Positions 210-2,818 of a stretch of 4,174 bases of DNA are shown in pieces. Origin of the DNA: a virus (Duplodnaviria; Heunggongvirae; Uroviricota; Caudoviricetes); the IMG/VR virus record IMGVR_UViG_2695420624_000001; one strand, written 5' to 3'. Each line of letters begins with the position of its first letter. Position 1 is the first letter of the stretch. A program made the translations under genes and the position numbers. The notes under the pieces were generated by a model. That model saw only the letters and a program-made list of their open reading frames with translations, made no database searches and had not been told where the DNA came from.

Positions 210-611
210 TTATCCCTGATAAAATGCCAGTATGCGCTGCATAACTTCACTCATCCGGCACTCGCGACAGATTATGTTTAGGCGACTGTCGTAGCGACGT
301 ATTTCTCCATCAGGTAACGACCAGATAAGGTCCGGATCAACCACAGCTGTTTTCTTCACCTTTGCCCTCGATAGTTTTTTGCGGGCGTTTTGCCAGTCCT
401 TACGCGCCTGTTCAGACGGGAATAACCCGTAGCCGGAGTTGTATACATCGCCACTGGCTACCAGCTCTCTGGCAAGAACGCTCATCAGATATCTAGTCGC
501 ACCTGTTTTAGCTTCCAGTTGCCGTAACGTCTCACGACCGCTCTGGCGCACGAGTTCCACCACCTGCCCTTTAATTTTTTCCCGCTCTTCTTGTGTAAAA
601 ACTTTTGCCAC
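210..611 (-). CDS. Hypothetical prophage protein (133 aa), last gene of the leftward early operon; the N-terminal half may be a winged-helix/HTH fold; function unknown
   Basis: Long ORF in the track. The start is GTG at 609-611, preceded on the minus strand by a strong Shine-Dalgarno AAGGGGGA (plus 615-622) with a 3-nt spacer; the next in-frame Met is far downstream (residue 43). It lies 40 bp downstream of the O-like gene stop (TAA, 652-654), same strand, consistent with an operon. Stop is TAA at 210-212. No family recognised by eye. Confidence 0.6.
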   Translation of the reverse strand: MAKVFTQEEREKIKGQVVELVRQSGRETLRQLEAKTGATRYLMSVLARELVASGDVYNSGYGLFPSEQARKDWQNARKKLSRAKVKKTAVVDPDLIWSLPDGEIRRYDSRLNIICRECRMSEVMQRILAFYQG

Positions 612-651: not shown

Positions 652-1617
652 TTATCCTCTGAAACCAGGCGGAATTTCTGTATCCGGTTCAGAAATATGA
701 TTCACACAACGCTGTACAGGTGAACGTCCCAGGCGGATGACCAGTTCGTCCCATTTTTCGCGGAGTTTTGACGGGCTCATGATGTTTTTTACCCAGAATG
801 GATCCCGCTGTACCCGACCAAACATTTCGCAAATTTGTCTGTGGCTTCTGCCATCCAGCATCCGCATTGTGCGCACGTCATTGGCCCAGGCTGTCCAGTT
901 AGGCTCTTTTGGTCGCATGATCTCTCCATCGTCGCTGGCAGCCTGTTCGTAAAGGTTCACGATCCGCCCCCAAATCCACTGCGCACACGCCAAATCCTCC
1001 CTGCTACCCCACTGGCGTTTTTTCACACTAAACACAACCGCGTCGGGGTTCCGGGTTAAAAAATCCTGTTCAGTCGTCTGCGGGTCCGGTTGCGAAGCTT
1101 CCGGACGAAAAGTGTTTTTATTCTCTGTAGTAATCTCTGTTGTATTCTCTGTAAGATCATCAGGCCATTTTGACCCGATGACATTGGGTCGTTTTGAACC
1201 AATGAAGCGTTTCATTTTGACCTCTTCCATCGTGTCATTTTGACCTGATGGAGCGGCGCATTTTGAACCGATGGATTCGTTCAATTTGCCACCATCTAAA
1301 AGCTCGCTCCCATAGTTGATCGTGTAGAAATTGGTCATATCGCGCTTTGATTTATTGAGCTTTTCACAACGCAAAAGCCCCTGCGTTTTCAGACTTGCAA
1401 ACGCGCGTTTTAACGTTGACTCTGACCAGAATGGGAACTGTTCCAGCCATTGTTCCGTTGTGTTATAAATCCAGCGAACACCATCACATTCCATACCGGA
1501 GTTGGTATCTCTCAACCAGTAGTGCAGTTGTTGCAAAACAATGGCTTCGTTTAAGCCGATTTTCATTGCCAGCTGCGTGTTTATAACCAGTGGGCGTTCA
1601 GCAAAAAGAAGACTCAT
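652..1617 (-). CDS. Replication initiator protein, lambda O-like (N-terminal DNA-binding domain, iteron-encoded linker, C-terminal domain); the track ORF extends to 1671 with a TTG start
   Basis: A 339-aa ORF occupies the O position after the cro-like and cII-like genes. Its central part is encoded by the iteron array, giving low-complexity peptide repeats (FIGSKRPNVIGSKWPDD), as in lambda O where ori lies inside the gene. The track start at 1671 is TTG with no SD; the in-frame ATG at 1615-1617 has a partial SD (GGATGG) and is preferred; another ATG at 1564-1566 lacks an SD. Stop is TAA at 652-654. Confidence 0.65.
   Translation of the reverse strand: MSLLFAERPLVINTQLAMKIGLNEAIVLQQLHYWLRDTNSGMECDGVRWIYNTTEQWLEQFPFWSESTLKRAFASLKTQGLLRCEKLNKSKRDMTNFYTINYGSELLDGGKLNESIGSKCAAPSGQNDTMEEVKMKRFIGSKRPNVIGSKWPDDLTENTTEITTENKNTFRPEASQPDPQTTEQDFLTRNPDAVVFSVKKRQWGSREDLACAQWIWGRIVNLYEQAASDDGEIMRPKEPNWTAWANDVRTMRMLDGRSHRQICEMFGRVQRDPFWVKNIMSPSKLREKWDELVIRLGRSPVQRCVNHISEPDTEIPPGFRG
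1119..1154. repeat. AT-rich block with three tandem 12-bp repeats (TATTCTCTGTAG / TAATCTCTGTTG / TATTCTCTGTAA) next to the iterons; candidate DNA-unwinding element of the origin
   Basis: TCTCTGT recurs at 1122-1128, 1134-1140 and 1146-1152 with exact 12-bp phasing, in a locally AT-rich stretch (about 1108-1160) immediately downstream of the iterons in the gene's reading direction, as for the AT-rich region of lambda ori. Confidence 0.45.
1157..1290. repeat. Putative phage origin of replication: five to six direct iterons of about 23 bp, core CATTTTGACC/CGTTTTGAACC, several near-palindromic (e.g. CATTGGGTC-GTTTT-GAACCAATG)
   Basis: Repeat cores seen at 1166-1175, 1190-1200, 1213-1222, 1236-1245 and 1259-1269, with a degenerate copy near 1283-1290; spacing is 23-24 bp. 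Each has a central T4 tract flanked by partial dyad symmetry (CATC...GATG). They lie inside the initiator coding sequence, matching the lambda ori-in-O architecture. Confidence 0.6.
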
Positions 1618-2119
1618 AATTCCATCCAGCTTTTTGTTGGTATTGCTGTCGATACGCAAGCTTGAAAGCAATTGCTTTTTCTATAAGTTCGTCAGTTTCA
1701 CGATCTACAACGGCAGGATCTGCAAAAAGCAGTCCAGATTCCACCACATCGCCATATTCTTTATTTAACCCGGCGATCATGTACGTAATACTTTTTCCAT
1801 CACTGATCTCACGATACAACCTGAAATCACTAATCCGGATAGCCTCCATAATTGCAGGCACTAGCGCTGTGAACTTTTCACGCTTATCCCTGGTGTCGAT
1901 AGCCTTCCAGCGTTCGAATATCTTCACTCGATTAACGCTAAGCGCTCGCTGATCAACCGCGCCACCTTCATATGTGACACGCTGAACATCGATGTTCGGG
2001 CGCTCTTTCAAAGCCCAGAATGCTTCAGTGATTAATATCGTCGCCTGCTCCTGTGTCATTCCTGGTCGACATATCCAGGCATCCAGAGCCTCACGAGCCT
2101 GTTCAGGAGTGATTTTCAT
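1598..2119 (-). CDS. Early-region protein (173 aa) in the cII / YdaT position between the cro-like gene and the replication initiator; putative CII-like/YdaT-family regulator
   Basis: Long ORF with ATG at 2117-2119, overlapping the upstream DicC-like stop (TGA 2103-2105) by 17 nt, which suggests translational coupling. Its own stop is TGA at 1598-1600, overlapping the start of the O-like gene. The family call is by position and size only. Confidence 0.6.
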   Translation of the reverse strand: MKITPEQAREALDAWICRPGMTQEQATILITEAFWALKERPNIDVQRVTYEGGAVDQRALSVNRVKIFERWKAIDTRDKREKFTALVPAIMEAIRISDFRLYREISDGKSITYMIAGLNKEYGDVVESGLLFADPAVVDRETDELIEKAIAFKLAYRQQYQQKAGWNYESSFC

Positions 2120-2330
2120 TGTTCAACCGCCCCGTCCGCTTCGTCTTACGATATTCGTCATAAACTTTGGGATCATACTGAAGCTCCCCGCCAGATGCCT
2201 CCTGTAGACGCATCGCGCGACCTTCAGGAACCAGTATCCCCCAGGCAGCAACACTTGCCAGTCTCACTCCTGCGGCATTGGCAAGCTTTGTTTTGCTGCC
2301 AAAAAAAGTAATTGCGTCAACTTTAAGCAT
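2103..2330 (-). CDS. dicC: Cro-like small DNA-binding regulator, DicC/YdaS family (75 aa from the ATG at 2328-2330; the track ORF starts one codon earlier at a TTG)
   Basis: Small ORF divergent from the DicA-like repressor. A strong SD AGAGGGGG (plus 2336-2343) sits 5 nt upstream of the ATG. A sigma70-like promoter lies on the minus strand upstream. Size and position match dicC relative to dicA in Qin. Confidence 0.6.
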   Translation of the reverse strand: MLKVDAITFFGSKTKLANAAGVRLASVAAWGILVPEGRAMRLQEASGGELQYDPKVYDEYRKTKRTGRLNNENHS

Positions 2331-2343
2331 CAAAGCCCCCTCT

Positions 2344-2361
2344 TGTTAGACTTTTCTAACA
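2344..2361. promoter_or_regulatory. Operator-like palindrome O1, TGTTAG-N6-CTAACA (perfect dyad), in the dicC-dicA intergenic region
   Basis: TGTTAG at 2344-2349 and CTAACA at 2356-2361 are exact reverse complements separated by 6 bp. The site overlaps the predicted -10 and transcription start of the leftward dicC promoter. The same 18-bp motif recurs twice downstream of dicA. Confidence 0.55.
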
Positions 2362-2388
2362 TTATTGTGCGCGGGATACCTAAGTCAA
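2361..2388 (-). promoter_or_regulatory. Putative sigma70 promoter of the leftward (dicC-like) operon: -35 TTGACT and -10 AATAAT with a 16-bp spacer
   Basis: Minus-strand sequence reads TTGACT (plus 2383-2388), 16 nt, AATAAT (plus 2361-2366), about 25 nt upstream of the SD of the dicC-like gene. The -10 abuts operator O1. Confidence 0.4.
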
Positions 2389-2410: not shown

Positions 2411-2818
2411 ATGGATACAAGAACCCTAGGCCAGCGAGTTCTGGCGCGACGAAAAGAATTACGCTTAACACAACGAGAAGCTGCGCGCCTCGCTGGAGTT
2501 GCTCACGTCACAATTTCACAATGGGAAAGAGACGAAACCCAGCCAGTCGGAAAACGATTGTTTGCTTTAGCGGATGCTCTGAAGTGCTCACCTACATGGC
2601 TAATGTTTGGTGATGAAGACAAGGCACCAGTGCCTGCACAAGAACTTCATGTGGAAACAGAGCTAACTCCCAACCACAAAGAATTGATCGAATTATTCGA
2701 TGCTCTTCCATCTTCCGAGCAGGAAGCCTTGCTGTCTGAAATGCGCGCAAGAGTAGAAAACTTCAACAAACTCTTCGAAGAAATGCTTAAAGCGCGTAAA
2801 AATAAATCAATAAAATAA
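2411..2818 (+). CDS. dicA: HTH XRE-family repressor, DicA-like (135 aa), the cI-analogous immunity repressor of this prophage
   Basis: ORF of 135 aa. The N-terminal helix-turn-helix (LTQREAARLAGVAHVTISQWER) and the conserved blocks LFAL...CSPTW..FGDEDK and ELFDALP.SEQ...EMRARV.NFNKLFEE..KAR match DicA of E. coli Qin as recalled from memory, with the same length. It is divergent from a Cro-like gene. Stop is TAA at 2816-2818. Confidence 0.8.
   Translation: MDTRTLGQRVLARRKELRLTQREAARLAGVAHVTISQWERDETQPVGKRLFALADALKCSPTWLMFGDEDKAPVPAQELHVETELTPNHKELIELFDALPSSEQEALLSEMRARVENFNKLFEEMLKARKNKSIK

Follow-up and report, generated by a model that had tools for sequence, protein, structure and literature searches.

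Does the middle of the O-like initiator gene of an E. coli lambdoid prophage contain the origin from which that prophage replicates? The gene (652-1617, minus strand) lies in a 4,174-nucleotide stretch of Caudoviricetes DNA, IMG/VR record IMGVR_UViG_2695420624_000001, which at its full length is called the window here. An iteron origin within the initiator gene is classic lambda biology. The original prediction, made from the sequence alone, proposed such an origin, with repeats laid out as in lambda but of a different sequence. The sequence comparisons reported below indicate that 1112-1296 is very probably the vegetative replication origin of the prophage, situated inside the linker-coding part of its own initiator gene. 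The locus has the anatomy of an iteron origin, is under selection at the DNA level, is inherited together with the N-terminal domain (N-domain) of the initiator rather than with its C-terminal domain (C-domain), and is conserved throughout a wide family.

Anatomy of the repeat region

The repeats and the AT-rich block that follows them in the direction of the gene are listed below, with iterons numbered in gene order.

1274-1296, minus strand: iteron 1, degenerate, in 23-bp phase, GATGGTGGCAAATTGAACGAATC
1251-1273, minus strand: iteron 2, exact core, found by the repeat finder, CATCGGTTCAAAATGCGCCGCTC
1228-1250, minus strand: iteron 3, 16/23 self-complementary, CATCAGGTCAAAATGACACGATG
1205-1227, minus strand: iteron 4, core only, poor dyad, GAAGAGGTCAAAATGAAACGCTT
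1182-1204, minus strand: iteron 5, 16/23 self-complementary, CATTGGTTCAAAACGACCCAATG
1158-1180, minus strand: iteron 6, 16/23 self-complementary, abutting the 12-mer block, CATCGGGTCAAAATGGCCTGATG
1112-1157, minus strand: AT-rich block, 70% AT and 65% purine on the gene strand
1119-1154, minus strand: three 12-mers, TTACAGAGAATA / CAACAGAGATTA / CTACAGAGAATA on the gene strand, presumed DNA-unwinding and helicase-entry element
1119-1130, 1131-1142, and 1143-1154, plus strand: the same 12-mers read as TATTCTCTGTAG, TAATCTCTGTTG, and TATTCTCTGTAA

The iteron core YRTTTTGAMC has five exact occurrences, all on the plus strand, at 1166, 1190, 1213, 1236, and 1259 (spacing 24, 23, 23, and 23), and no further copy on either strand of the window. 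Chance would give 0.14 exact cores, and none of 200 shuffled sequences reached five. A repeat finder recovered the same 23-bp families and their inverted-repeat character; Tandem Repeats Finder reported the 12-mers only, the iterons having diverged too far outside the core. In total the array holds six 23-bp units between 1158 and 1296, five strong and one weak, in keeping with the "five to six" iterons of roughly 23 bp that had been predicted. The dyad-symmetric pattern of the iterons is CATCrGGTCA-AAA-TGaCCyGATG, with an A-tract centre. The partial dyad symmetry claimed at the outset is borne out by the three 16/23 self-complementary units, and the units at 1251-1273 and 1205-1227 consist of the core plus one arm. 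Iteron 1 scores 10-12 against a position weight matrix, about the level of the best chance site, and is aligned with a good iteron, GATGAGGTCAAAGTGACC, in relatives.

Three 12-bp TCTCTGT repeats in exact phase had been predicted within an AT-rich block downstream of the iterons, and they are found there, at 1119-1154, by both repeat tools. TCTCTGT occurs three times in the window, every time within the 12-mer block, compared with 0.43 expected, and 2 of 200 shuffles reach three. The block lies 3 bp from the last iteron. GC content is down to 27.5-30% at about 1110-1157, and within the gene, stability is lowest in the 40-mer 1115-1154, whose nearest-neighbour free energy (dG) is -44.3, the mean for the gene being -54.7 (z = 3.0). 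The AT-rich block is accordingly both the AT maximum and the stability minimum of the initiator gene; several intergenic stretches of the window are less stable than 1115-1154. No convincing IHF or DnaA site was seen within the 12-mers, by inspection by eye only. Just downstream of the AT-rich block is an inverted repeat, GTCCGG-N10-CCGGAC (1084-1105), whose 6-bp stem could easily be due to chance; lambda has a palindrome after its AT tract, in the corresponding position.

DNA-level selection and family-wide conservation

The initiator is a protein of 321 amino acids (aa) whose start, the ATG at 1617, is that used in RefSeq and in homologs; the mechanical open reading frame runs to a TTG at 1671. 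Its parts, delimited with the aid of an AlphaFold2 model and its predicted local distance difference test (pLDDT) scores, are as follows.

1294-1617, minus strand: N-terminal winged-helix domain, aa 1-108 (folded aa 11-108), pLDDT 70-88, presumed reader of the iterons
1075-1293, minus strand: predicted disordered linker, aa 109-181, pLDDT below 50, encoding the whole origin
724-1074, minus strand: C-terminal domain, aa 182-298, folded in the model, homologous to lambda O
655-714, minus strand: last 20 residues, ...ISEPDTEIPPGFRG, candidate host-docking tail, matched by a DnaT model

The iterons encode aa 106-152 and the 12-mers aa 153-168, inside the predicted disordered linker. Because 23 bp is not a multiple of 3, all three frames are used to translate the iteron core, giving IGSKC, SGQND, EVKMK, IGSKR, and IGSKW. 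A codon-aware alignment was made of ten Enterobacterales relatives sharing the N-domain. Where the amino acid is invariant and its codon degenerate, the codon itself is fully invariant at 86% of sites in the 12-mer block and 73% in the iteron array, compared with 5% of those in the N-domain (Mann-Whitney p = 2e-9). Amino acid conservation in the same ten relatives is 0.80-0.81 in the origin versus 0.90 in the N-domain, whereas nucleotide conservation is 0.90-0.92 in the origin versus 0.86 in the N-domain. This is the reverse of what protein-level selection produces and therefore indicates selection on the DNA. The third codon positions of iteron cores and of the spacers inside the array did not differ significantly (p = 0.14), because the whole array is constrained. 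Codon choice in a larger set of 77 species, described below, has the same tendency: of 142 Thr-Glu pairs in the linker, 125 (88%) use ACAGAG, versus 4 of 53 (8%) in the remainder of these genes. Together, these patterns point to the repeats being DNA elements under DNA-level selection and not peptide repeats.

To define the family, one genome per species was scanned, which gave 246 relatives of the N-domain; the best 80 were taken, and 77 loci, one per species, were usable. The best 80 are from Enterobacterales, Pseudomonas, Acinetobacter, Staphylococcus, Bacillaceae, lactobacilli, and a Bacteroidota metagenome-assembled genome (MAG), with identities of 45-99%. In the 180 bp after the N-domain, the best autocorrelation lag was 22-24 in 45/77 loci, compared with 4 for an N-domain control and 7 for a C-domain control, and mean identity at lag 23 was 0.386, compared with 0.25 and 0.28 in the controls. 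Minor autocorrelation peaks in the origin region of the 77 loci, at lags 9 and 14 (9 + 14 = 23), probably reflect an internal half-site structure of the iterons.

The 12-mers, too, recur across the family. Right after the last iteron, CAGAGA-type motifs 11-13 bp apart are present at least twice in 55/77 loci and at least three times in 42/77; among codon-shuffled controls (n = 1540), 8 had at least two such phased motifs and none had at least three. Loci from Gram-negative hosts have the 12-mer consensus wACAGAGAwTAC, those from Firmicutes and Bacteroidota have ACCAGAGAcTAC, and in 6 loci the motif is spaced at 11 or 13 bp, which changes its frame. The iteron core CAAAATG is widespread in the family, and a Staphylococcus caprae prophage has CATCAGGTCAAAATGACCCGAC. 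Conservation of the iteron core and of the 12-mers across phyla implies that the module is ancient and portable. An AT-rich tract as such needs no particular sequence. Here the iterons drift while the 12-mers retain their sequence, period, and distance to the last iteron from phylum to phylum. This suggests recognition by something that is itself conserved, either an invariant part of the N-domain, possibly acting on single-stranded DNA as at the 13-mers of oriC and RK2 (PMC5043065), or a conserved replisome component.

The predicted recognition helix of the N-domain spans aa 66-78, and residue 67, at its beginning, is Ser in the window (codon 1417-1419, minus strand). In 45 loci, compared with kinship ignored, Ser67 accompanies T as the base before the CAAA core (GTCAAA) in 22/22 loci, among them Staphylococcus and Neptuniibacter; Asp67 accompanies G (GGCAAA) in 9/9 loci, from Pantoea, Pseudomonas, and Acinetobacter; Arg or His67 accompanies C (GCCAAA) in 2/2 loci; and Lys67 accompanies A or T. 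This covariation fits direct readout of the base by the residue.

Comparison with phage genomes by BLAST divides the gene into two exchangeable parts. The segment 743-1121, corresponding to the C-domain, is common to SfII, SfIV, and others, and 1083-1560, comprising the N-domain and the origin, is common to Klebsiella phages with a different C-domain, Pfam PF09524. SfII-type genes have another N-domain (PF13730 in relatives) and other repeats, GACCCGTCAAAATCTGA in one frame, and no CAGAGA 12-mers; SfIV likewise shares only the C-domain, its N-domain and repeats differing and the 12-mers being absent. Phages that share the N-domain keep six 23-bp iterons and the 12-mers whatever their C-domain, for example, Klebsiella ST147-VIM1phi7.2 and Hafnia yong2, and in yong2 the exact 23, 23, 23, and 24 spacing is kept while the iteron is altered to GGACAAAWTGTCC. 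Since the iterons and 12-mers are linked to the N-domain and not to the C-domain, the N-domain is the presumed binder. The SfII gene (~313-450) and that of Klebsiella P7641 (~317-425) combine an HTH_36-type N-domain with the C-domain of the window. Their GACCCGTCAAAATCTGA-like units, which lie in a single frame and give DPSKS/DASKS peptide repeats, have a strict 15-bp period in P7641 and a less regular one in SfII. These repeats are probably the origin of those phages, although their in-frame period fits either a DNA or a peptide role.

The mosaic junction, 1083-1121, lies at the edge of the 12-mer block, and the conserved origin DNA may also serve as a site of crossing over when modules are exchanged. 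It is conceivable for the 12-mer block alone that it is not an unwinding element and that it encodes a flexible TTE-repeat linker peptide or provides a homology patch for module recombination. Such a role would agree with the location of the junction, with the swapping of C-domains right after the block (lambda-O type here; PF09524 in the Klebsiella, Hafnia, and Pantoea relatives), and with the mostly constant frame of the 12-mers. We nevertheless consider it unlikely: near-total synonymous invariance is at odds with a purely peptide role, second-order selection for a patch would not hold helical-turn spacing or a fixed distance from the iterons across phyla, and the block is the least stable DNA of the gene, at the position of the AT-rich tract of lambda.

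Genomic setting and competing explanations

The window corresponds to the part of an E. coli lambdoid prophage that is concerned with immunity and replication, and its other principal features are as follows.

2411-2818, plus strand: DicA-like repressor gene
2361-2388, minus strand: pR-like promoter TTGACT-16-AATAAT upstream of the cro-like gene, consensus match only
2103-2333, minus strand: P22-Cro-like gene
1598-2119, minus strand: YdaT/cII-like gene
652-1617, minus strand: O-like initiator gene
210-611, minus strand: DUF977/Ren-like gene

The other arm of the window carries ydfA, ydfB, and sieB. Downstream of the pR-like site, the cro-like, cII/YdaT-like, and initiator genes are all on the minus strand. 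A 20-bp overlap between the YdaT/cII-like gene (stop at 1598) and the start of the initiator gene (ATG at 1617) suggests translational coupling. A promoter and terminator scan of 600-2500 found none in the origin region, the sole promoter-like site being 2388-2361. An explanation of the region by an RNA element was dropped because an Rfam scan of the whole window returned no RNA family. No P, DnaC, or helicase gene was found beside the initiator gene in the prophage, where the DUF977/Ren-like gene is followed by NUDIX and HAD hydrolase genes.

Several E. coli chromosomes match the window at 99.6% identity by megablast. Parts of the window are found in 4827/5426 complete E. coli genomes, and a 201-bp origin segment in 1956 of the 5426 (36%); the genomes bearing this segment have no annotated origin, and the initiator gene is often named "hypothetical". 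Versions of the initiator gene with 96-98% identity are present in the genomes of phages PhiR42_1, mEp460_ev081, and HannyBb. The E. coli prophage initiator gene also turns up, at 98-100% identity, in contigs assigned to Veillonella parvula, "Bacillota bacterium", and Collinsella MAGs, most likely through contamination during binning and not because of host range.

The chromosomal context bears on a further alternative, in which the array, though bound by the initiator, is a relic or has a part in autoregulation or copy control only, the prophage copy being silent or the unwinding site lying elsewhere. In strain AR_0017 the prophage adjoins rspB, and its surroundings include the Qin/Rac-like cryptic-prophage genes hokD, rem, kil, and a truncated dicB; this context, the degeneracy of iteron 1, and the absence of a loader gene speak for such a reading. 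However, the AR_0017 prophage still has integrase, excisionase, exonuclease, repressor, and antiterminator genes, and the isolated phages HannyBb and mEp460_ev081 have the 201-bp segment with only 3-4 differences in a gene order identical to that of the window. Synonymous sites are under strong purifying selection across species, and the 12-mer block is at a fixed distance from the last iteron family-wide, as would be expected of an unwinding element coupled to the array. A relic or a regulatory array is therefore quite improbable.

There is very little chance that the repeats are a by-product of a repeated initiator peptide with no role as DNA, the outcome against which the original prediction was to be checked. 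The array does give recurring IGSK peptides, and the 12-mers are in frame here, encoding TENT/TEIT/TENK, and in one frame in most family members. Against this, the core is used in three frames and the DNA is better conserved than the protein, the origin having, relative to the folded N-domain, much higher conservation at synonymous sites and lower conservation of amino acids; the linker bias toward ACAGAG is not shared by other Thr-Glu pairs, the 12-mer motif occurs in differing frames in the 6 loci with 11- or 13-bp spacing, and the encoded region is predicted to be disordered. Binding of the repeats by another protein (host DnaA, IHF, or a phage repressor) is equally remote, with nothing specific in its favor beyond A-tract-centred dyads being a common operator shape, whereas it is the initiator N-domain that the repeats accompany, not the immunity region or the C-domain, the variable iteron base covaries with N-domain residue 67, and the arrangement persists in hosts of different phyla, unlike what a host-specific iteron factor would give.

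Several observations do count against assigning the vegetative origin to 1112-1296. With an AT content of just 70%, the AT-rich block takes seventh place when the 40-mers of the window are ordered by instability; iteron 1 on its own is weak, and the dyads of iterons 2 and 4 are poor. The comparative statistics count related sequences as independent, and shared ancestry partly confounds the covariation of residue 67 with the iteron base. Most loci have their 12-mers in frame, as TE.T repeats, so a peptide role may contribute. Finally, no helicase loader is encoded, and the lambda mechanism is for this reason not transferable step for step.

Initiator, known origins, and a possible mechanism

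The gene had been predicted to encode an O-like initiator, and this holds: the protein matches PHROG 391, "replication initiation O-like" (8e-92), is named "phage replication protein O" in RefSeq, and has a C-domain homologous to that of lambda O (34% identity over 148 aa, E = 1e-27, BLASTP). BLASTP to lambda O aligns the C-terminal half only, which is the P-binding half in lambda, and the N-domain has no sequence similarity to that of lambda O; a profile of the N-domain showed no relationship to lambda O by hhalign (probability 0.2%). Pfam searches with the full protein and with each half, to E = 10, gave only noise (Slx4, YLR146W-A) and no family for the N-domain, and the Pfam families RepA_N, DnaD, and Phage_rep_org_N did not match the initiator. 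A search of PDB sequences with the N-domain profile found nothing below E = 0.3. PHROGs name the N-domain relatives "DnaD-like helicase loader". The model shows the N-domain as a winged helix-turn-helix: residues 54-60 and 66-78 form its helices, and a beta wing comes after them, at 82-100. A fold search with it matched winged-helix regulators and, with weak scores, structures of plasmid Rep-DNA, DnaD, and primosome DnaB, including 5kbj ("Rep-DNA complex"), 4pql ("N-terminal domain of DNA binding protein"), 4pta ("Replication initiator protein / MDR initiator"), 5wtn (primosome DnaB), and 8ojj (DnaD, N-terminal domain).

The last 20 residues match positions 160-179 of the DnaT model NCBIfam NF002770 (E = 0.0064, 16.1 bits against a cut-off of 201). 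NCBIfam returned this tail only, far under the cut-off, and no full-length DnaT match; for that reason the "Primosomal protein I" labels on phage records are misnomers, which stem from the DnaT-like tail. The tail motif [IV]P.GFRG is kept in relatives whose C-domain has been swapped for PF09524. A 2026 preprimosome paper gives no function to the extreme C-terminus of DnaT. Bacillaceae relatives end in ...EEDF.FDDE[TA] or DFNLDD and lactobacilli relatives in ...DDLPF or KELPW, resembling acidic-aromatic SSB-type C-termini. The differing tails at the gene end look like host-matched docking motifs.

The lambdoid origin consists of iterons and an AT-rich tract in the middle of O (PMC7466680). In the annotated lambda record, 4 iterons are at gene positions 349-433, with spacing 20, 24, and 23, and the AT minimum is at 436-475; in the window, if counting begins with the TTG at 1671, the iterons are at gene positions 404-513 and the AT minimum is at 518-557 (54 less if it begins with the ATG). 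The predicted lambda layout is thus matched in both the order and the position of the elements. As in lambda, the origin is mid-gene, between the N- and C-domains of the initiator (coding sequence 652-1617, origin aa 106-168), and consists of dyad repeats of about 18-23 bp with an A-tract centre, 20-24 bp apart, followed in the pR direction by an AT-rich tract. The iteron count of 6 is that of the Shiga toxin (Stx) phages P27 and 933W (PMC7466680, PMC5043065). The AT tract of lambda is strand-asymmetric (PMC5043065), with 74% AT and 70% purine; that of the window, at 70% and 65%, is milder, and consists of three sequence-conserved 12-mers whereas lambda has a loose A-rich run. The iteron of the window, CATCrGGTCAAAATGaCmCGATG, was expected to be distinct from that of lambda, and in fact has only the central TCAAAAYG in common with lambda ATCCCTCAAAACGAGGGA, the arms being CATCrGGTCA and TCCCTCA, respectively. 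A different initiator specificity from that of lambda fits this divergence and the unrelated sequences of the two N-domains. Also unlike lambda, no P gene follows the initiator gene, and the initiator has the DnaT-like C-terminal tail.

Other systems share parts of this organization. Plasmid initiators of the RepA_N type (pSK41) and phage replisome organisers (SPP1 G38P, DnaD-like) have a winged-helix N-domain followed by a helical C-domain, an arrangement that the initiator of the window may share. Both groups have their origin inside their own gene. The 12-mers resemble the 13-mers of oriC and RK2 oriV in being at least three direct repeats, each with a length of about one helical turn, in the least stable DNA adjoining the initiator sites; they differ in their motif, wACAGAGAwTAC, and in lying within a coding region. 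In the 13-mers of unwinding elements, the exact sequence matters beyond AT content (PMC5043065). O-only replication modules have been described in phage LLS and in 34 of 314 Enterobacterales lambdoid phages (PMC12315714). None of these O-only phages has been studied experimentally, and their replication was considered "not yet understood" in 2025 (PMC12315714). By comparison of gene content, the window, HannyBb, and mEp460_ev081 resemble this class in having a single O homolog and no helicase or loader; in HannyBb and mEp460_ev081 the Ren-like gene is next, and no loader or helicase is found within 3 kb. The O-only paper gives no description of iterons (PMC12315714). Full-text literature searches with the 12-mer and iteron strings returned unrelated primers only, and searches of the literature on mEp460, on replisome organisers with iterons, and on DnaT with lambdoid phages yielded no account of this origin.

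By analogy with these systems, binding, melting, and helicase recruitment might proceed as follows. Early transcription from the pR-like promoter would pass through cro, the cII/YdaT-like gene, and the initiator gene. The N-terminal winged-helix domain, probably as dimers, would bind the six 23-bp iterons, residue 67 of the recognition helix reading the base pair just outside the CAAA core. The resulting nucleoprotein complex would strain the adjoining 12-mer block and open the least stable DNA of the gene. Host DnaB would then be brought in via the lambda-O-like C-domain and/or the DnaT-like C-terminal tail, a route proposed because P, DnaC, and helicase genes are absent.

More tentatively, the 12-mer array could be a sequence-specific element read by a conserved part of the initiator or by a universal replisome component, and kept as such from Firmicutes and Bacteroidota to Proteobacteria. 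Combined with host-matched tails, DnaT-like in Enterobacterales and acidic-aromatic SSB-like in Bacillaceae and lactobacilli, it would allow one protein to do the jobs of both lambda O and P, namely, recognition, melting, and DnaB-DnaC recruitment, with residue 67 as a simple specificity switch. This is a possibility to which we give distinctly less weight than to the location of the origin.

The origin is common in E. coli yet unannotated, and it is part of the O-only module class reported as unstudied (PMC12315714). The predictions that follow from the analysis comprise exact origin coordinates, Ser67 as a candidate specificity residue together with the base that it matches, and candidates for the unwinding element and the host-docking tail. 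The conservation of the module across phyla is of use in predicting prophage origins and incompatibility groups and in building orthogonal replicons. The origin is of interest for a 12-mer element shared across phyla, for what looks like a specificity code of one residue, and for its bearing on O-only modules: if a single protein does take the roles of both O and P, this would explain how the lambdoid modules that encode O only, which are not understood at present, replicate.

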